From: a virus
Length of the DNA stretch: 44,975 nucleotides
Direction: 5' to 3' (one strand)
IMG/VR virus record: IMGVR_UViG_3300031539_000078
Span: 1-44,975 of that record
The translations under genes were made by a program, and so were the position numbers. Under the pieces are notes generated by a model, which saw nothing but the letters and a program-made list of their open reading frames with translations, was not told the origin of the DNA and searched no databases. The first letter of the stretch is position 1. Each line of letters opens with the position of its first letter. Of the stretch, positions 2,190 to 36,641 are shown one piece after another.

Positions 2190-2590
2190 TTTGATTCTAA
2201 TTCAAGGTCTTTTATGGTTTGGCCAATAGAACCTTGAATATAACCATCAATATAATTATCTCTATCTAATAATATGGGGGCACAGTATTTTTCATAACTT
2301 GGAGGATCACGCCAGCCCCTAAAATACCATTCATAAGCTTGTCGGGAGCAATCTGGTGGTGCAAAACCCCGTCCATAATAACCATCTCGGTATCCCTGTT
2401 GAAAGGATGGAGTGCCAAATGGGATATGGGGGGTAGATGGTTCTGTATTTGGGGAATATACATAATTTGTAGTTGGTTCCTGATAGTATGTGGGGCTTAC
2501 TTGTTGGGGAGATGACAGAGCCTTTATGCCCACTATTAAAATAATAAGACCAATCCCCAATAGGATACATAGAGTCCGCTGTCTGGTCAT
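2186..2590 (-). CDS. Small membrane-anchored protein (N-terminal TM helix, Tyr/Gly/Pro-rich ectodomain); moron-like
   Basis: 134-aa track ORF on the opposite strand to its neighbours. TM segment LCILLGIGLIILIVGI. It has its own promoter, and its stop codon overlaps the stop of the giant ORF (convergent). Confidence 0.6.
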   Translation of the reverse strand: MTRQRTLCILLGIGLIILIVGIKALSSPQQVSPTYYQEPTTNYVYSPNTEPSTPHIPFGTPSFQQGYRDGYYGRGFAPPDCSRQAYEWYFRGWRDPPSYEKYCAPILLDRDNYIDGYIQGSIGQTIKDLELESN

Positions 2591-2596
2591 ATTTCT

Positions 2597-2624
2597 AGTT
2601 TATCACCATCCGGATTTTTGTCAA
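2597..2624 (-). promoter_or_regulatory. Sigma70-type promoter giving a leaderless mRNA for 2186-2590
   Basis: The minus strand reads TTGACA-16 nt-TGaTAAACT-agaaat-ATG. The -10 ends 6 nt before the start codon and there is no SD. Confidence 0.5.
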
Positions 2625-2650
2625 GACCTTCCGAGGGGCGGGTGCAATCC

Positions 2651-2698
2651 AAAAGAAATAGGCCTCAAGGCTCTCCTTACTGCCTCAAGACCTATTTC
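2651..2698 (-). terminator. Intrinsic terminator-like hairpin downstream of the tRNA
   Basis: Imperfect long stem with outer 8 bp gaaatagg/cctatttc. On the minus strand it is followed by TTTTGG, giving cctatttcttttgg. Confidence 0.45.
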
Positions 2699-2720
2699 CG
2701 AAGTCTTGGGTTCTTTTACC

Positions 2721-2735
2721 CATCCGACTACCAAT
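2721..2735. repeat. 15-nt arm complementary to the tRNA anticodon arm (partner 2813-2827)
   Basis: The reverse complement of catccgactaccaat is attggtagtcggatg, versus attgatagtcggatg at 2813-2827. That is 14/15, and the mismatch would be a G-U pair in RNA. Confidence 0.8.
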
Positions 2736-2775
2736 CAATATTAATGTTAAAACACCCCCCAAACTTTGTCAAGTG

Positions 2776-2851
2776 TGGTGGAGGCAAAGGGATTTGAACC
2801 CTCAACTTTCCAATTGATAGTCGGATGCTTTCCCGATTAAGCTATGCCCCC
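2776..2851 (-). tRNA. 76-nt tRNA with encoded CCA; anticodon loop CUAUCAA, so the anticodon reads AUC (nominally Asp, codon GAU)
   Basis: Cloverleaf drawn by hand. Acceptor GGGGGCA/TGCCTCC (one G-U), D stem GCTT/AAGC, anticodon stem TCCGA/TTGGA, 5-nt variable loop, T arm GAGGG-TTCAAAT-CCCTT, discriminator A, CCA. Confidence 0.85.
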
Positions 2852-2869: not shown

Positions 2870-3024
2870 CGGGATTAGGGGTATCCTGGCATAAAACTCT
2901 AATTTCCCCCCTATCAGAATTGGGGACAGAAGTCGTCTAAAATAACTTTTGTGATGATTTACCCATAAAAGACCTTTTACCCCCCTAAAAAGACCTCTCA
3001 AGGCGAGGTTATATTTGGATAAGG

Positions 3025-3137: not shown

Positions 3138-3812
3138 ATGGCAGAAGATAAAAAGGAAGAGATAACACCCGAAGTCAAACCTGACATAAAGGTGGAAACT
3201 CCACTACAAGTATCAATCGAGGATTTACAGAAGCAACTTCAGGACAGAGATTCCAAAATCCTAGAACAGCAACGAACAATATCGAGACATGCTGAAAGTG
3301 AGCGTAAGCTCAAAGACCAAAGCGAGGCCGTAATAGCTCTAAGGGATGATTTTGAGGAGTATCGGGCTACATCACTGGATTACCTTGAGGAATTACGAGG
3401 CCAACCAGTAGAAGAAGCTAAAACTCCAAGAAGTCACCGGGCAGAACTAGAGGAACAGAGAAAGGCACGGGCTGGGGAGAAGAAAGCTCCTCAAGACCCT
3501 GATGTAACTAGGTTTATCACCTATATTGATAGTCAGGAGTTAAAGCCTGATGACCCACTAGTTCTTGAGGCTGTTGGCGAAGACCGAACCCCCCAAGAAG
3601 CTCTTAAATACTTGCGGGATAAGGTTAAAGCTAATAGTCAAGCTAGTACTGAAAAGAGTGCTGCGGAAATCGCCAAGGGTTTGCATGAGCAATGGCTCAA
3701 GGAACATGGATTAACGGCTCCTGGTGCTGGGGGACCCAGTGCTTCAGCGAAAAATTGGCGGGATTTATCTGCCAAAGAAAAAATCGATTATGCCATAGCT
3801 GGGAAAAAATAA
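3138..3812 (+). CDS. Putative scaffolding protein
   Basis: Strong SD AAGGAGA. 224 aa, Glu/Lys-rich with coiled-coil-like composition, immediately upstream of the capsid gene. Confidence 0.5.
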   Translation: MAEDKKEEITPEVKPDIKVETPLQVSIEDLQKQLQDRDSKILEQQRTISRHAESERKLKDQSEAVIALRDDFEEYRATSLDYLEELRGQPVEEAKTPRSHRAELEEQRKARAGEKKAPQDPDVTRFITYIDSQELKPDDPLVLEAVGEDRTPQEALKYLRDKVKANSQASTEKSAAEIAKGLHEQWLKEHGLTAPGAGGPSASAKNWRDLSAKEKIDYAIAGKK

Positions 3813-3829
3813 ATTAAAGAGGTAAACAA

Positions 3830-4858
3830 ATGGCTTATACATTAGCCGAAGCTGCAAAACTATCTGATGACCCCTTACAGGCAGGCGTAATAGAAATGTT
3901 TATCAGCGATGACCCAGTACTAGAGCGGTTGCCGTTTACTACCATCGTTGGTAATTCGTTAACCTACGACCTTGAATTGACTGAGCCAACTGCCAAATTC
4001 TATCTACCGAATGAGACCTGGGTTGAGACCACTGGAACTGTTGACCAGGCTACCGCCAAGCTTAAGGTTCTTGGTGGCGATTCTGATGTGGACAACTTCC
4101 TGATGGCTACTCGCTCCAACGTAAACGACCTCAAGAGTGAAGCCCTTAAGGCTAAAGTCAAGGCAGTCAGGAAACAGTTTTTGACTACATTCTGGTATGG
4201 ATACGATGCGTCTGGTATTGCTGTTGGCGGTTGTACTGGTAGGGAGTTCAATGGTGTGCATTCTCTGGTTAGCAGTGTGGGAACAAACACTACGGCAGCA
4301 GCAGCTGCTGGTCTGCACCTTAGCTACAATGTTATAGCTCTGGGAACTAGCACTACAGACACGGTTGCACTGCCTTATCACAGGCTAGAGGAAGCGGTAG
4401 ACAAGATTAAGGGCTTTAAGCCTGACTTGATGGTGATGACAAAGCAAATGAAGCGTCTCATCAATGTCTATCTGCGTGGTGCTGGTGGGATTAGTTATGA
4501 GGATATGGCTGATAAGCGTGTTCAAAGCATATACAACGTTCCTGTTGGTGTAAGTGATTACATCAGAGAGGATGAGGACTGCACGAAACACTATAGCTCG
4601 TATGCAAGCAACGAGTATGGCTTTGACTACACAACCTCCGCTACCGTAGATGACGGCACTTCAATCTTTATCCTGAGCTTTGACCCGAAGGGTTGTTGTG
4701 GTGTGCAGAATGGTGCAATGACAACTGTTCCCTTGGGAGACCTGGAAACCAAAGATGCCAGTCGTTTCAGGATTAAATGGTATGTAAGTATGATGCTTCA
4801 GAACATTCTATCCTGTGCGAAAGTAACTGGTATCAAAGTCGGCGCTGTAGGCGCATAA
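3830..4858 (+). CDS. Major capsid protein (HK97-fold type)
   Basis: 342 aa following the scaffold-like gene. The N-terminal pattern LQAGVIEMF...PVLERLPF..IVGNSLTY...LKVLGGDSDVDNFL resembles phage major capsid families from memory. Strong hairpin downstream. Confidence 0.7.
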   Translation: MAYTLAEAAKLSDDPLQAGVIEMFISDDPVLERLPFTTIVGNSLTYDLELTEPTAKFYLPNETWVETTGTVDQATAKLKVLGGDSDVDNFLMATRSNVNDLKSEALKAKVKAVRKQFLTTFWYGYDASGIAVGGCTGREFNGVHSLVSSVGTNTTAAAAAGLHLSYNVIALGTSTTDTVALPYHRLEEAVDKIKGFKPDLMVMTKQMKRLINVYLRGAGGISYEDMADKRVQSIYNVPVGVSDYIREDEDCTKHYSSYASNEYGFDYTTSATVDDGTSIFILSFDPKGCCGVQNGAMTTVPLGDLETKDASRFRIKWYVSMMLQNILSCAKVTGIKVGAVGA

Positions 4859-18830: not shown

Positions 18831-18985
18831 TCGGCTTGGGACTTATGATAACAGGTACGGTAGGCATAATATCCTCAACCATATTAGAGTGGAAAAGGAA
18901 AGAACCGATTTATGCTCTACTTATGAAGATATTTCCCGCGGTCTTTGCAGTTGGTTGTGCCCTTTATTTCGTGGGGAAGATATAA
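18827..18985 (+). CDS. Second small 2-TM protein (holin/antiholin-like), 52 aa
   Basis: Not in the track. ATGA overlap and SD AAGGAGA. Translation MIGLGLMITGTVGIISSTILEWKRKEPIYALLMKIFPAVFAVGCALYFVGKI. Confidence 0.4.
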   Translation: MIGLGLMITGTVGIISSTILEWKRKEPIYALLMKIFPAVFAVGCALYFVGKI

Positions 18986-19004
18986 TCATAGCCACGATAT
19001 TACC

Positions 19005-19033
19005 TTGACAGAAAACGGGTTGTAATTTAGAAT
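19005..19033 (+). promoter_or_regulatory. Near-consensus sigma70 promoter (TTGACA-17-TAGAAT)
   Basis: Read directly. No coding gene follows for ~290 nt. Confidence 0.6.
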
Positions 19034-19040
19034 AGAATAT

Positions 19041-19250
19041 AGCTTGCCAGTGGCGAAATAGACTATTAAGTAGACGCACCTCTTTGCTGAAGAGGTAGAA
19101 ATGGTAGGAAAAGAGATAACTACCTTGAGAGGTCTTGATTCTAGGGTGGCGATAGGAAATCCCTAGCTGGCAAGTAAAAGATAACAATGGCTTCCAGTTG
19201 TAGTATGTCGAAATGATACTAAGCATCTGGGAGCCAATCTTTTTATTTTA
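19041..19250 (+). ncRNA. Candidate ~205-nt structured non-coding RNA of unknown class
   Basis: Closing stem 19042-19050/19167-19175. Hairpins at 19078-19096, 19103-19124, 19141-19166 and 19201-19221. Stem 19188-19196/19228-19236 is followed by ATCTTTTTATTTT. The longest internal ORF is 21 codons. Confidence 0.45.
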
Positions 19251-19290: not shown

Positions 19291-19319
19291 TTGACAAAAA
19301 ATAATGCTTGTTTTATAAT
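19291..19319 (+). promoter_or_regulatory. Perfect consensus sigma70 promoter (TTGACA-17-TATAAT) for the RHH gene
   Basis: Read directly. The ATG lies 9 nt after the -10 with no SD, so the mRNA would be (near-)leaderless. Confidence 0.7.
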
Positions 19320-19328
19320 TGTATCACG

Positions 19329-19484
19329 ATGGCAAAGGAAAAAGTTATCCATGCAAGATTAACGAAGGAACAATATGACAATCTTGTATCACGGGCAAAA
19401 AGCCGAAGGCAGAAGGTATCTGAGTATATTCGCTTTCGTTTATTTGGCAGTAAGTTGCTAGATTTATGGGAAAGGATAAGATGA
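19329..19484 (+). CDS. Ribbon-helix-helix (CopG/MobC-like) DNA-binding protein, 51 aa; candidate excision or immunity regulator
   Basis: Not in the track. MAKEKVIHARLTKEQYDNLVSRAKSRRQKVSEYIRFRL fits the RHH pattern (beta strand, then two helices, SEYIR). Confidence 0.6.
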   Translation: MAKEKVIHARLTKEQYDNLVSRAKSRRQKVSEYIRFRLFGSKLLDLWERIR

Positions 19485-19485
19485 G

Positions 19486-19530
19486 TAGGCCGTCAGGGAT
19501 TCGAACCCTGGACACCCTGATTAAAAGTCA
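19486..19530 (-). other. attP core candidate: 3' half of a tRNA-Lys(UUU) gene (anticodon loop to discriminator), with no 5' half
   Basis: The reverse complement reads TGA-CTTTTAA-TCAGG-GTGTC-CAGGG-TTCGAAT-CCCTG-ACGGCCT-A. Upstream sequence cannot form acceptor or D arms. It lies directly next to the integrase gene. Confidence 0.7.
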
Positions 19531-19560: not shown

Positions 19561-20382
19561 GTGAATAGTCAGGAATTATATCAGGAATTTATTAACAAGA
19601 GAAGGAACTCAGGTCTAAGTCCAAGAACAATAGAGGCTTATAATTATTCCATCCTGCCTTTTGTAGGATCCTGTGCTGAATTACCATGCACAGAAACTAA
19701 TGTTGAGAGTTATATCTATGATAACAGTTGGTCACAAGCGAAGCGTGCGTTTGTCTATCGTCATTTAAGAGTTTTCCTTCGATGGTATTCAAGACATTAT
19801 AAACAAGACAATCCTATTTTAGATGTATTAAAGCCTCGCACGAAACTAGAGCCAGTTCGCTACCTTACTAAAGAGGAAATTATCAGGCTTTATCAAAAGG
19901 TCTATCCAAACAAGAAACACAGGGCAATCATATTAACTTTACTTGATACGGGTATCCGAGTGGGTGAATTGCTCAGTATAAAAATCTGCAATTTAGACCA
20001 CGACATATTACAAGTGACTGGTAAAAGTGGACCACGGACGGTTGCCATTTCCCCTAGCGTCAATCAACTCCTTAAGGAAATTGCTCCTACAAATTCTGGA
20101 AAGGTTTTCGGTAACATGGATAGGCATACTGTATATCGGATAGTTTCTGGTTATTTAGAGGACATGGGTTTTGATGGTAAGCGGGGTCCTCATACATTAC
20201 GCCACACATTTGCCGTTCATGCCTTACGAAATGGGATGGACATAATTTCCGTCAGCCAAACAATGGGACATAAAACGATTGCTATGACCCAGCAATATCT
20301 GAGACTAGCACAGGGTGACATTACAGAATCACATCAAAAATACAGTCCGCTTAATTTGTTATTTGCAGAGGTTCAGGAATGA
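19561..20382 (+). CDS. int: Tyrosine integrase / site-specific recombinase (XerC/D-like)
   Basis: LLDTGIRVGEL (Arg), HTLRHTFAVHAL (HxxR) and GHKTIAMTQQYLRL (His..Tyr). N-terminal SAM-like domain LSPRTIEAYNYSI. Confidence 0.9.
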   Translation: MNSQELYQEFINKRRNSGLSPRTIEAYNYSILPFVGSCAELPCTETNVESYIYDNSWSQAKRAFVYRHLRVFLRWYSRHYKQDNPILDVLKPRTKLEPVRYLTKEEIIRLYQKVYPNKKHRAIILTLLDTGIRVGELLSIKICNLDHDILQVTGKSGPRTVAISPSVNQLLKEIAPTNSGKVFGNMDRHTVYRIVSGYLEDMGFDGKRGPHTLRHTFAVHALRNGMDIISVSQTMGHKTIAMTQQYLRLAQGDITESHQKYSPLNLLFAEVQE

Positions 20383-20740: not shown

Positions 20741-20794
20741 GAAGTAGGATTGAACACAAAATGAGAACGGCTGTAACTAGAATGAGTACACTTG

Positions 20795-20830
20795 CTTGCC
20801 GACCTTGGGCAAGTTGGCAGGACTTTTTTC
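20795..20830 (+). terminator. Intrinsic terminator-like hairpin plus T6
   Basis: Stem tgccgac/gttggca (or cttgcc/ggcaag), followed by ggacTTTTTTc. Confidence 0.4.
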
Positions 20831-20850
20831 ACACCTCCTTTCAGGATATT

Positions 20851-20886
20851 GGGAAGGGGAGCATCGACCTTTTAGCTCCCCTTCCC
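20851..20886. other. Perfect 12-bp inverted repeat with a 12-nt loop
   Basis: gggaaggggagc-atcgacctttta-gctccccttccc. Confidence 0.85.
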
Positions 20887-20906
20887 CTAATAAGAGATAA
20901 GTGACA

Positions 20907-21077
20907 ATGGATTTTGAATATATTTATTGCTGGGGCAATAACCCTAAAAGAGCGACCCTGAAGGGTCGGTTATGTCGCATACTACAACGGCTTAGTATGA
21001 ATAGTTGTATCGTGGAATTTGAGAATGGGCAGAAGGAATGTGTGAGTAGAAACTCCTTAAGAAAGGTGGGAAATTGA
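20907..21077 (+). CDS. Small conserved-looking phage protein (56 aa)
   Basis: Not in the track. Translation MDFEYIYCWGNNPKRATLKGRLCRILQRLSMNSCIVEFENGQKECVSRNSLRKVGN. Confidence 0.4.
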   Translation: MDFEYIYCWGNNPKRATLKGRLCRILQRLSMNSCIVEFENGQKECVSRNSLRKVGN

Positions 21078-28138: not shown

Positions 28139-28167
28139 TTGCTTGCTGGGGGCGTGTGTGTTATAAT
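28139..28167 (+). promoter_or_regulatory. Sigma70-type promoter (TTGCTT-17-TATAAT); ATG 28174 lies 6 nt after the -10
   Basis: Read directly. Confidence 0.5.
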
Positions 28168-28620
28168 ATGGCTATGAAAAAAGAAATTATTGTTTATTTG
28201 GCTGGCATTATTGATGGAGAAGGAAGTATCAGGATAGAGCTAGAAAAGGGAAAGAAACGGCAAAGACCTGATTATTATCGTCTGCGTTTATCTGTTAGTA
28301 ATACTTATTATGGACTAATGGAATGGCTAACAGAACATTTTATTGGTTCATTTATCAAGGAGAAAAAAAGAGTAGGGAACTTAAAACAAGTATACCAATG
28401 GGAGATTAAAGCACCGAAACGAGTAGCACAAATTGTCAGGTTGATTTATCCATATCTAATAGTAAAAAAGCGACAGGCAGAAATTGCCTTTGAGTTAGCG
28501 GAGATAATGGGGAAAACTCGGCATAAGTATAGTTCTGAAGAACGGCAAAGAATCAGATTGCTTTACGAGCAAATGAGAATAGCTAATCAAAGAGGGCGAG
28601 CCAGCATAAAGAACGAGTGA
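28156..28620 (+). CDS. LAGLIDADG homing endonuclease, paralog 2 (start ambiguous: GTG 28156, ATG 28168 or ATG 28174)
   Basis: VYLAGIIDGEGSIRI motif. LIYPYLIVKKRQAEI parallels LIYPYLKLKKPQADI of paralog 1. Confidence 0.8.
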   Translation: MCYNMAMKKEIIVYLAGIIDGEGSIRIELEKGKKRQRPDYYRLRLSVSNTYYGLMEWLTEHFIGSFIKEKKRVGNLKQVYQWEIKAPKRVAQIVRLIYPYLIVKKRQAEIAFELAEIMGKTRHKYSSEERQRIRLLYEQMRIANQRGRASIKNE

Positions 28621-33145: not shown

Positions 33146-33766
33146 ATGGAATTAAAATTGGTGCGTTTTAGGAAAACTGAAGTCATTGAACTTTTAAGCA
33201 TTTTGCCCTCATTGAAACAGCGGGGACAAACGGGTTTAGACTTGGCACTAGAGTTAGAAACTAGGTTGGAAGCATGTAATCAGGCTGGGGGTATGGTTAA
33301 AGAGCTTTATACCTGGGGGGAAGATATTGAACATATTGCAACATCTCATGGATTTACTACTATGCAGACTAAAAAATATATTGAGCAAGCAATCTGTTAT
33401 ATATCGGGATGGTCGAGAAAGAAGAGAACCTTCAAGCATTTTATCCAGCATATTGGTAAGGGTAAACGCAAGGTATGGGTGCCACAAATAGGAACTGAAC
33501 GTTTAGTGGGGGGTTATGCCCAAGTATTCGTGGGTAATGATTTTCCCGGTGTGCCTAAAAGTGGGTGGATGTATAAACACAGATTAGTGATGCAAAAATA
33601 TCTCGGTAGACCATTGAAATCCTGGGAAGTTATCCATCATAAGGACAGGAATAAATTAAACAATGAAGTTTCTAACTTAAAGGTACTCTCCCATGTAGAG
33701 CATCCAGTGTGTATAAGATGCCCTTATTACGAATTTTATTTGAAACAAAAATGCGACATACATTAG
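33146..33766 (+). CDS. Fusion protein: YISGW.RK.RT-family HTH domain (member 2) plus C-terminal HNH endonuclease domain
   Basis: N-domain IATSHGFTTMQTKKYIEQAICYISGWSRKKRTFKHF. C-domain YKHRLVMQKYLGRPLKSWEVIHHKDRNKLNNEVSNLKVL. Confidence 0.65.
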   Translation: MELKLVRFRKTEVIELLSILPSLKQRGQTGLDLALELETRLEACNQAGGMVKELYTWGEDIEHIATSHGFTTMQTKKYIEQAICYISGWSRKKRTFKHFIQHIGKGKRKVWVPQIGTERLVGGYAQVFVGNDFPGVPKSGWMYKHRLVMQKYLGRPLKSWEVIHHKDRNKLNNEVSNLKVLSHVEHPVCIRCPYYEFYLKQKCDIH

Positions 33767-35246: not shown

Positions 35247-35750
35247 CTAATTTAATCTTGCCTCGAGTTGCTGAATTCTTTTCTTTAATTGCTTAATATA
35301 TCGCTTCGTTTGTATATCCACCAAATGTTGTTTCTGGGTTGGTAGAAGTTCTAAATTTTCAATGCAATTATCGCTTTTATTACCATTCTTGTGGTGAATT
35401 ACTTCCCAGGGCAACAAGCATCTTGATAAGTGTTTAGCCATTACTAAGCGATGTTCTAGAACTTGTCCATGAATATCAGCCATAGAGGAGAAGAAGTCAT
35501 TAGCACCCAATCGCACATTTATATAACCATCGGGGCGTTTATAATAACCACCTTTCCAATTATGTCCGTGGTTAGTTATGGGGTCTATGTGGCTACATGC
35601 TTGGCATAAACCTTGGAGTTTTTGTTTATGGAAGTATATGTTTTCAACCCAGCGTTCATAGCCACAATGTGGGCAACGAGCCCAGATAAATTTATTTGTA
35701 CACCGCCTATTCAGGCTTTTAGCTGTAGTAATATCACCAACACAGGACAT
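35247..35750 (-). CDS. HNH homing endonuclease, paralog 3
   Basis: CPHCGYERW...CQAC ribbon, then GQVLEHRLVMAKHLSRCLLPWEVIHHKNGNKSDNCIENLEL. ATG 35750 is preferred over the track GTG at 35762. Confidence 0.85.
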   Translation of the reverse strand: MSCVGDITTAKSLNRRCTNKFIWARCPHCGYERWVENIYFHKQKLQGLCQACSHIDPITNHGHNWKGGYYKRPDGYINVRLGANDFFSSMADIHGQVLEHRLVMAKHLSRCLLPWEVIHHKNGNKSDNCIENLELLPTQKQHLVDIQTKRYIKQLKKRIQQLEARLN

Positions 35751-35767
35751 AATATCACCCACTAAGA

Positions 35768-36098: not shown

Positions 36099-36641
36099 TT
36101 ATCCTCTTAGCCTTATCCCAATAAGGTTTTGGTTTTCTAGTTCTATAATTCTTTGTTCTAGAGCTTGCAATTTATGTTGCATTGCCATAGAGGGTAAATG
36201 GTTATTCATATTTGGGAAAAGTTCTAGATTTTCAATTCTGTTATCAGCTCTAACACCATTCTTGTGATGAACAACCTCCCAACTTTCTAAACATCTACCT
36301 AGATATTTCGCCATAACTAATCTGTGTTCCCTGAGGTACCCTGATTTTCTAGCCATCGGATAATATGGATTATCCGGTTGCAATTTTATTTCTATATAAC
36401 CGCTAGGGAGTTTATGTTTACCACCCCTCCAAGCTGGATTTGCCTTCCCACTACCTGAGGTAAACTTATTATGACATTTTAAGCACATTCCTGTGAATTC
36501 TTTTCGTTTTAAGCTATCAATTCTAACCCATCTACCTATAATGCAAACTGGGCAAATAATCCATACCTTGACTCCCCTATGGCGTCCTTTGGCGTCTATA
36601 ACTACTGCTGTTTGTCCTTGTTTTAATAATTCCTTGCCCAT
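36099..36641 (-). CDS. HNH homing endonuclease, paralog 4
   Basis: CPVC...CLKC ribbon, then GYLREHRLVMAKYLGRCLESWEVVHHKNGVRADNRIENLEL. Confidence 0.85.
   Translation of the reverse strand: MGKELLKQGQTAVVIDAKGRHRGVKVWIICPVCIIGRWVRIDSLKRKEFTGMCLKCHNKFTSGSGKANPAWRGGKHKLPSGYIEIKLQPDNPYYPMARKSGYLREHRLVMAKYLGRCLESWEVVHHKNGVRADNRIENLELFPNMNNHLPSMAMQHKLQALEQRIIELENQNLIGIRLRG

Follow-up and report, generated by a model that had tools for sequence, protein, structure and literature searches.

Known cases of RNAs that imitate transfer RNA (tRNA) include transfer-messenger RNA (tmRNA), Y RNAs, the 3' termini of plant-virus genomes and a small number of phage regulators. The C4 RNAs of phages P1 and P7 and the CI RNA of phage P4 are matured by RNase P via tRNA-like features and carry their immunity specificity in variable loops. 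Phage T4 encodes two stable RNAs of unknown function, species 1 and 2, which lie beside tRNA genes and are processed by tRNA enzymes. Here, a structured RNA is described from the IMG/VR virus record IMGVR_UViG_3300031539_000078, of which positions 1 to 44,975 were analysed (44,975 nucleotides (nt); hereafter the window). The segment at positions 19042-19175 is predicted to form an oversized, non-decoding tRNA cloverleaf in which the anticodon and variable arms are swapped for idiosyncratic hairpins. As far as could be found, the RNA is a divergent member of a class of tRNA mimics without an earlier description: a full-text literature search by sequence motif and keyword, in an incomplete collection, returned no account of the class. 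Likewise, no description was found of a natural 'tRNA scaffold' in which the anticodon domain is swapped for a structured RNA.

The architecture of the phage RNA is identical to that of the engineered tRNA scaffolds of Ponchon and Dardel, in which the anticodon stem-loop is replaced by an arbitrary structured insert; these scaffolds are recognised by cellular factors, and the insert is protected from nucleases in E. coli (PMC3753655). Both retain the acceptor stem and the D and T arms, but the phage RNA is natural and has a tRNA-Leu-type D arm, a 6-base-pair (bp) T stem and a UGCAAAU loop. Like tmRNA, it has an acceptor stem formed by its two ends, a T arm towards the 3' end and a large intervening domain that is not tRNA-like. 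However, tmRNA lacks a D stem and contains pseudoknots and a tag open reading frame (ORF), whereas the centre of the phage RNA is not conserved and holds no conserved ORF. The alanine identity of tmRNA is anticodon-independent, and the same is conceivable for leucine in the phage RNA. C4 and CI are likewise phage-encoded small RNAs, but they have no D or T arms; in the phage class, target complementarity is not reproducible (one of five genomes) and members occur in presumed virulent phages. The bacterial Y RNA YrlA is non-coding, is encoded by some phages and mimics the D/T-loop elbow of tRNA (PMC4201824). Its ends form the Ro60-binding stem and its tRNA-like part is internal, in a permuted arrangement, unlike the phage RNA, whose ends form the acceptor stem. 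The phage class shares with class II tRNA-Leu the 7-bp acceptor stem, U8, a near-identical D arm and the T arm, and with tRNA-Sec the 7/6 acceptor/T stack of 13 bp; acceptor/T branches of 12-13 bp are found in both allo-tRNAs and tRNA-Sec (PMC5389517). The class differs from canonical tRNA by the absence of a conserved anticodon arm, a centre of 55-165 nt and, mostly, G55.

The class is defined by a common scaffold, which consists of a 7-bp covarying acceptor stem, the dinucleotide UG, a GCGGAAUAGGUAGACGC-type D arm and a 6-bp covarying T stem with a UGCAAAU loop, without a CCA end. The centres enclosed by the scaffold are unrelated between members and rich in stable capped hairpins. Covariation was analysed in an alignment of the scaffolds of 14 members, from which the centres had been removed by hand. 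The window RNA aligns over all scaffold columns with the 13 other members, and all of its scaffold pairs form. Standard pairs occupy 99.1% of the pair cells in the alignment, compared with 30-44% after a shift of the 3' partners by 1-3 columns, and the acceptor-core and T-stem cells are 100% paired. Compensatory changes are observed in 10 of the 16 pairs (six of seven in the acceptor stem and four of six in the T stem), and the covariation score was reached by none of 500 shuffles. The stem covariation passes through G-U intermediates, and the D-arm and T-loop sequences hardly vary. The original prediction, which was made from the window sequence alone, had named covariation in related phages as a check on its helices, and the homologues do keep the helices through compensatory changes.

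The class is widespread in cultured phages. A BLAST search with the 5' module against 50,697 phage records matched 152 records. Among the matches listed, most of those from phages of Gram-negative bacteria and cyanobacteria are annotated tRNA-Leu genes, one of which, in Raoultella phage Ro1, was confirmed by ARAGORN, and in T4-like phages the module matches only true tRNA-Leu genes. The assignment of the D arm is verified by these matches to annotated tRNA-Leu genes. Many other matches, in phages of Enterococcus, Lactobacillus, Listeria, Leuconostoc, Bacillus, Weissella and others, are unannotated, and the same design was found in all ten of those inspected. The ten phages are SPP1 (between genes 9 and 11), an SPbeta hybrid, Listeria B025, Enterococcus VEsP-1, Weissella WC29P3, Latilactobacillus TMW 1.1447 P1, Leuconostoc Ln-9, Brochothrix BtpYZU01, a Hujiaoplasma phage and a Bacteroides LoVEphage. 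In this design, a 7-nt acceptor strand, UG and GCGGAAUAGGUAGACGC are followed by a folded variable centre of 55-160 nt, the 6-bp T stem with UGCAAAU and the complementary acceptor strand; the Bacteroides phage is exceptional in its 5-bp T stem and UUCGAGU loop. The discriminator is A in seven of the ten members. None of the ten elements is called by ARAGORN or annotated in the inspected GenBank records, and an Rfam scan of the one cultured-phage locus scanned (L048) returned nothing on the element. In SPP1 (X89721, L049), the tRNA-like RNA is directly followed, at ~620-665 of the locus, by a minihelix of the T-arm/acceptor type, CGGAC...CGGGUUCAAUUCCCG...GUCCG, and a U run.

Environmental relatives were sought in public collections by pattern scans with GCTTGCCAGTGGCG...GTAGACGC and with 3'-end patterns. 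The scans identified the true relatives L024, L026, L027 and L028 in metagenomes and L042 and L044 in IMG/VR. The candidates L025, L030-37, L043, L045 and L046 were rejected as chance matches in coding DNA, and a scan of a species-representative genome collection with the 5' module gave GC-rich chance matches only. A covariance model built from the single window RNA found no relatives among the loci first gathered. A further relative, L022, was found via a homologue of the 149-amino-acid protein encoded upstream of the window RNA. L022 shares with the window the promoter and the initial 19 nt (AUAUAGCUUGCCAGUGGCG), after which come GAAUGGGUAGACGC and a wholly different sequence; the short stretch GAAUGGGUAGACGC reads as the D arm of a leucine tRNA. 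Another relative of the 149-amino-acid protein, in IMG/VR (L004), is not syntenic, and an 834-amino-acid tail protein of the window has no homologue in IMG/VR. Homologues of the neighbouring integrase at 43-72% identity (L005-L021) keep the tRNA fragment of attP and have no RNA beside them, and L018 and L019 are 100% identical to the window and offer no variation.

The environmental members vary in their loops and in what follows the cloverleaf. L028, L024a and L042 have a plain D loop (GGAAUAGGUAGA) and the 7-nt T loop UGCAAAU, and in L027 a 39-nt hairpin is inserted at the T-loop position where the window and L026 carry 7 nt. T loops of the UUCGA type occur in L022, L024b and the Bacteroides phage. 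L024b is a second tRNA-like unit (L024 8656-8787) that abuts the first without a spacer. Both its covarying acceptor stem (GCUGGAG/CUCCAGC) and its D arm differ from those of the first unit, its T loop is a canonical UUCGAAU and its centre measures ~75 nt; the 420 nt upstream of it carry several TTGACA(C/T) repeats. Downstream of the tRNA-like part, L026, L028, L042 and L044 carry additional modules with conserved closing stems (AGCCUGAGCC...GGCUCAGGC), whereas the window has a terminator-like hairpin instead. These modules lie at ~3625-3860 (-) in L026, 1301-1400 in L028, 3625-3760 in L042 and downstream of 11376 (-) in L044. Their interiors are unrelated, and their stems read AGCCUGAGCC...GUAG.AGGCUCAGGC and then GGGGCUGGCUA...UAGCCAGCCCC. 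The centre of L042 (3528-3597) also holds a 12-nt same-sense copy of the ribosome-binding region of the upstream gene, GGAGGCAGTTAA (3189-3200).

The window RNA differs from the class pattern in that its D loop and T loop carry insertions (8 and 7 nt, respectively), as they also do in L026. Its acceptor-like stem P1 measures 7-9 bp, with the core UUGCCAG/CUGGCAA paired and U8 at 19051 (Table 1). The D loop is tRNA-Leu-like (GAAAUAG...GUAGA) with the 8-nt insertion ACUAUUAA (19062-69) between the G residues that match G18 and G19; the D arm of the relatives, GGCGGAAUAGGUAGACGC, matches annotated tRNA-Leu genes, and in the window the two G residues stand 8 nt apart. With a 6-bp stem and a T loop enlarged to 14 nt by its insertion, the T arm deviates from the canonical tRNA pattern of a 5-bp stem with a UUCRANY loop. 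After the D arm, a 5-bp/7-nt hairpin (19079-95) mimics the geometry of an anticodon arm, and the other members inspected have unrelated sequence at this position. An intron-containing tRNA was considered and rejected, since by inspection such an arm follows the D arm in no member but the window; centres of 55-165 nt are also too short for group I introns, and the hosts are bacterial. The original prediction of a structured non-coding RNA with its own promoter holds, and every helix that it listed is present in the minimum free energy (MFE) fold. It had overlooked the arm at 19053-77 and the hairpin at 19125-38, and it did not recognise its closing stem and three hairpins as a tRNA cloverleaf.

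Table 1. Positions of the RNA, its expression signals and the adjoining features in the window
Feature	Position	Strand	Description
Sigma-70-type promoter	19005..19033	+	TTGACA 19005-10, 17-nt spacer, TAGAAT 19028-33; 11/12
Leader	19034..19041	+	AGAATATA; immediately 5' of acceptor-like stem
Predicted transcription start	~19040-41	+	From promoter position
P1 acceptor-like stem, 5' strand	19042..19050	+	7-bp core UUGCCAG 19044-50; two extra pairs 19042-43; MFE fold
U8-G9 and D arm	19051..19077	+	Stem GCG 19053-55 / CGC 19075-77; scaffold alignment
Hairpin in anticodon-arm position	19078..19096	+	CCUCU-UUGCUGA-AGAGG, 5 bp and 7-nt loop; not conserved
Hairpin P4	19103..19124	+	GGUAG, 12-nt loop, CUACC; MFE fold
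Hairpin P5	19125..19138	+	UUGAG-AGGU-CUUGA; MFE fold
T arm	19141..19166	+	6-bp CUAGGG/CCCUAG; loop UG[GCGAUAG]GAAAU = UGCAAAU with 7-nt insertion
P1, 3' strand	19167..19175	+	CUGGCAA 19167-73; discriminator-position G 19174; U 19175; no CCA encoded
3' trailer, terminator-like	19176..19250	+	Compound hairpin 19176-19243, then UAUUUUA; MFE fold
Trailer substructure	19176-19243	+	Outer A-tract/U-tract pairs; 10-bp stem 19188-97/19227-36; inner hairpin 19201-21
Neighbouring unit, outside RNA	19291..19484	+	12/12 promoter 19291-19319; 51-amino-acid RHH/NikA-like gene, ATG 19329 to 19484
attP core	19487..19518	-	Copy of tRNA 3' part, read as tRNA-Lys(UUU)-like
Tyrosine integrase gene	19561-20382	+	After attP core

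Standard models do not recognise the element, and Rfam scans of the window and nine related loci, at both gathering and E-value thresholds, placed no family on it. The Rfam tRNA model gave no match on it at E-values up to 10 (window and L048) or up to 1 (environmental loci), those for C4 and tmRNA gave none on it in the window, and those for GOLLD, ROOL and Y RNA gave none in the window, L022, L024, L026-28, L042, L044 or L048 (E-values up to 1-10). The sole nearby match to the tmRNA model (12 bits) lies on the T-arm copy in attP (19494-19511), and an ARAGORN tmRNA search found none in the window. At default stringency, with or without introns, ARAGORN reported nothing on the element; relaxed settings gave dubious calls only, in L024, L026 and L028, and the call at 8655-8786 of L024 coincides with the second unit, L024b. 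The RNA had earlier been left without a family, which agrees with the Rfam result, yet it is of a recognisable kind as one of a widespread phage class of tRNA mimics.

Comparison with the closest homologue, L026, indicates that the product is an RNA rather than a peptide, because the substitutions in the stems keep the pairing while the ORF is lost. L026 is 92% identical to the window over the tRNA-like part. In P4, a U-A pair is changed to C-G on both sides and an A-U pair to G-U; in P5, two changes on the 3' side turn U.G and G.U into U-A and G-C. Thus, all five substitutions in P4 and P5 preserve pairing. The changes in unpaired residues are found at one P4-loop position and one T-loop position, and a 2-nt deletion in the equivalent of the 19078-96 hairpin breaks its 5-bp/7-nt geometry. 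The longest + strand ORF inside the window RNA has 21 codons (19101-19166), as had been noted before, and its ATG is replaced by ACG in L026. That this ORF encodes the functional product, which the original prediction had kept in view, is barely conceivable. A GAGGU motif stands 4 nt upstream of the ATG, but this Shine-Dalgarno-like motif is sequestered in the 19078-96 hairpin, the indel of L026 lies just upstream of the lost start codon and the sequence of the other members is unrelated at this place. On the minus strand, a 101-codon ORF (18921-19226) was rejected, as it lacks a Shine-Dalgarno sequence, its translation looks like junk and Pfam gave no match.

The expression signals suggest that the window RNA is a stand-alone small RNA gene with its own predicted promoter, a terminator-like end and no conserved ORF. 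The window represents a temperate phage of ~45 kb whose genes lie almost exclusively on the + strand and whose products seldom match known families of phage proteins; the hosts are taken to be bacterial because the flank of L005 encodes a sigma-70 factor. The last gene before the RNA encodes a small membrane protein and stops at 18985. Only four sites in the window match the promoter consensus at 11 or more of 12 positions (19005+, 19291+, 35796- and 36677-). All four are intergenic, and each lies directly 5' of a unit, namely the RNA, the RHH gene and two minus-strand HNH genes. The near-consensus promoter that the original prediction had placed before the RNA is thus borne out, also by the same promoter in front of the L022 homologue, and so is the further promoter that it had noted downstream. 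At the leader position, an A/T-rich RAATAT(A) sequence is present in all environmental members (alignment of upstream regions, with L042 and L044).

The segment 19036-19250 has an MFE of -68 kcal/mol (z = -3.9), which was equalled by 0 of 200 shuffles, and by GC-corrected MFE it ranks first for stability among the 1790 sliding windows of 215 nt taken from the + strand. Folded by itself, the tRNA-like domain (19040-19180) gives a more modest z = -2.4, with 3 of 200 shuffles as good. Both DNA strands of the region fold well, and the + strand folds 12 kcal/mol better than the minus strand owing to G-U pairs. The intrinsic terminator proposed for the 3' end was recovered in part: the fold contains a hairpin with a U-rich tail, but the simple terminator scan called nothing at this end, on account of the length and branching of the hairpin. 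The A-tract of the trailer is paired, in the MFE fold, with the first part of the U-tract. The trailer is accordingly described as terminator-like from its modelled fold, short of a textbook terminator.

The RNA unit is flanked by the late genes, at their lysis-side end, and by the RHH-attP-int module; this geometry would place it a few hundred nt from one end of the prophage. The element is 250-450 nt from the attP core, and in L014 an intact tRNA-Lys(ttt) adjoins a homologous integrase. The association with the RHH/attP/int locus that had been drawn earlier does not extend to the class, as judged from the loci compared; an integrase is the neighbour in just two of eight environmental members. 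In L028, the RNA lies 12 nt past an integrase gene, and in L024, L026, L027 and L042 it lies among small early-type genes. Cultured-phage members are positioned after ArpU-type regulators, before HNH or terminase genes, or within the head-gene block, and real tRNA genes sometimes adjoin them. A consensus promoter is immediately upstream only in the window and L022, and the other members are probably cut out of longer transcripts. Of three members in cultured phages that were scanned, two have a called terminator-like hairpin 30-45 nt past the tRNA-like part.

The conserved part of the RNA comprises the acceptor/T-arm stack and the D/T-loop elbow, which form the surface that tRNA enzymes read (RNase P, RNase Z, the CCA-adding enzyme and those few synthetases for which the anticodon is irrelevant), so that the transcript is probably matured like a tRNA. 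The 5' end would be cut by RNase P and the 3' end would be formed by RNase Z or exonuclease trimming, perhaps with CCA addition. Maturation would make the RNA stable, and the matured RNA would act in trans on an anticodon-independent tRNA-binding factor of the host or the phage, by occupying it, titrating it or being charged by it. Candidate partners include a LeuRS (leucyl-tRNA synthetase) or SerRS (seryl-tRNA synthetase)-type recognition system and a defence enzyme that modifies tRNA ends or cleaves tRNA, and the variable centre would either be carried as a passenger or serve to set the specificity. The identity of tRNA-Leu for E. coli LeuRS rests on A73 and on D/T-loop tertiary elements and not on the anticodon or variable arm; a minimal tRNA-Leu without both arms is still charged, and G73 is an antideterminant (PMC9976931). 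The framework as a whole, tRNA-like maturation followed by action as a tRNA mimic in trans, is held with moderate confidence, and the confidence in any particular partner is much lower. The ideas of an anti-defence RNA and of a protein sponge, both raised in the original prediction, are better framed as tRNA mimicry.

Several observations weigh against this framework. Most members have G at position 55, which is U55 in tRNAs, within the T loop UGCAAAU. The T stem of 6 bp gives a 13-bp acceptor/T stack, and the elbow differs from that of canonical tRNA. The window RNA has a G discriminator, and its D-loop insertion separates G18 from G19; because G73 is a LeuRS antideterminant, leucylation of this RNA is unlikely. 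No partner protein is evident among the window proteins, and a Pfam scan of ~30 window ORFs revealed no Ro60-like domain. L044 keeps the P1 stem and the flanking modules without a D or T arm inside, from which the tRNA-like core does not appear to be strictly required in the environmental subfamily. The acceptor-stem sequence of this subfamily is near-invariant, which agrees better with recent exchange or with a partner that reads the sequence than with mimicry of shape alone. The outer P1 stem of L044 encloses non-tRNA hairpins with GNRA-type loops.

A broader and more tentative proposal is that phages from hosts of many phyla encode 'headless' RNAs derived from tRNA-Leu, which keep only the anticodon-independent identity surface (acceptor stem, discriminator and D/T elbow) and hijack or blind a tRNA-dependent process of the host. 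Such RNAs might sequester LeuRS or SerRS or be aminoacylated by them, act as decoys for defence enzymes that cut or modify the ends of tRNA, or manipulate tRNA-sensing regulation, and the swapped-in central domain would tune their specificity. If the class is real, it sits unannotated in genetically tractable phages (SPP1, SPbeta-type, Listeria and Enterococcus phages), in which its function could be tested quickly. It bears on how phages handle host systems that read or attack tRNAs and on how cells and viruses stabilise and present non-coding RNA, and it would give annotators a new RNA family for large 'empty' intergenic phage regions.

Other accounts of the element were weighed against tRNA mimicry in trans. 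The scaffold might carry an antisense or immunity RNA, such that the tRNA-like frame serves only RNase P processing and stability, as in C4 and CI, while the hypervariable central loops pair with transcripts of the phage or host and owe their diversity to differing specificities. The centres are indeed unrelated even where the promoter and 5' module are common, as between the window and L022, they abound in stable capped hairpins, and the window unit adjoins the RHH/attP/int module. The antisense or immunity regulator suggested by the original prediction also gains from a 14-nt perfect complementarity between 19123-36 and an intergenic site of the same phage, 2990-3003 (p ~0.02 by shuffling). 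The 14-mer, however, is largely within helices P4 and P5, no significant complementarity was detected in the other four of the five genomes searched (Ln-9, WC29P3, L024 and L042), and the Rfam C4 model does not match. SPP1 and the Mccleskeyvirinae phage Ln-9 are presumably virulent, which would make a general role in lysogen immunity impossible. An antisense function is thus considered unlikely. The element may instead be a site of processing, punctuation or stabilisation, in which a tRNA-shaped entry point for RNase P and RNase Z in polycistronic transcripts has no function in trans. Most members do lie between genes of one operon without a sigma-70 promoter of their own, further stem-closed modules fill the intergenic space after environmental members, and real tRNA genes follow in the Brochothrix and Enterococcus phages. 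This account is quite unlikely, because the window RNA has a strong predicted promoter and a terminator-like end with no downstream cistron in the same transcript, and because RNase P and RNase Z do not need near-invariant D- and T-loop sequences such as the class keeps.

Two accounts without a functional RNA were also considered. A decaying tRNA-Leu pseudogene or a functionless recombination scar would agree with an element that is not recognised as tRNA, carries insertions in its D and T loops, has lost the canonical anticodon arm and shows a 2-nt deletion in L026 relative to the window. Decay is very improbable, given that phages infecting Bacillus, Listeria, Enterococcus, Leuconostoc, Weissella, Brochothrix, Tenericutes and Bacteroides all retain the architecture, that two of its helices show compensatory changes, and that the window element has a dedicated consensus promoter and the most stable fold of the + strand. 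It is highly improbable that the element acts at the DNA level, for example as an att arm, recombination site or module boundary, with its conserved inverted ends functioning in recombination. The ends are conserved around unrelated interiors, adjacent modules are likewise closed by conserved inverted sequences, two members adjoin integrases and both DNA strands fold well. The ends, however, reproduce the D-arm and T-arm sequences of tRNA and thus go beyond mere inverted repeats; the + strand owes its 12 kcal/mol advantage to G-U pairs, through which the stems also covary; and the window element is separated from the attP core, with most members away from integrases.

Further observations were made around the locus and elsewhere in the window. 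The ATG of the RHH/NikA-like gene (19329) lies 10 nt past the -10 box of its 12/12 promoter, and the mRNA is probably leaderless, judging from this spacing; the encoded protein has no detectable homologue in a collection of 5.8 billion proteins. Upstream of the related integrase in L012/L013 (~1290-1370), three direct repeats GTTACCG(T/C)TTTGGTAACT and a small zinc-ribbon gene are present. The same loci contain a tRNA-Met on the opposite strand, preceded by a promoter-like sequence that resembles the RHH promoter of the window. The second most stable region of the window, on both strands, is 20786-21000, with a minus-strand terminator-like hairpin at 20968-20953. The minus-strand HNH genes (35247-35762 and 36099-36641) run opposite to the rest of the genome and have their own 11/12 promoters (35796 and 36677); from this arrangement, they look like free-standing homing-endonuclease insertions. 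Further nuclease genes encode a third HNH protein (33146-33766) and a LAGLIDADG protein (28156-28620). The 2990-3003 site lies upstream of head genes in a region that carries repeated AAAAGACCT motifs. A phage tRNA at 2776-2851 (-) is called Asp with the anticodon AUC, which places A at position 34; A34 in tRNA-Asp is believed to be unusual in bacteria. Just downstream of this tRNA, 2590-2775 (-) is the most stable 215-nt fold of the minus strand, with promoter-like sites at 2772 and 2624, and on the basis of this predicted fold it may be a second structured RNA.

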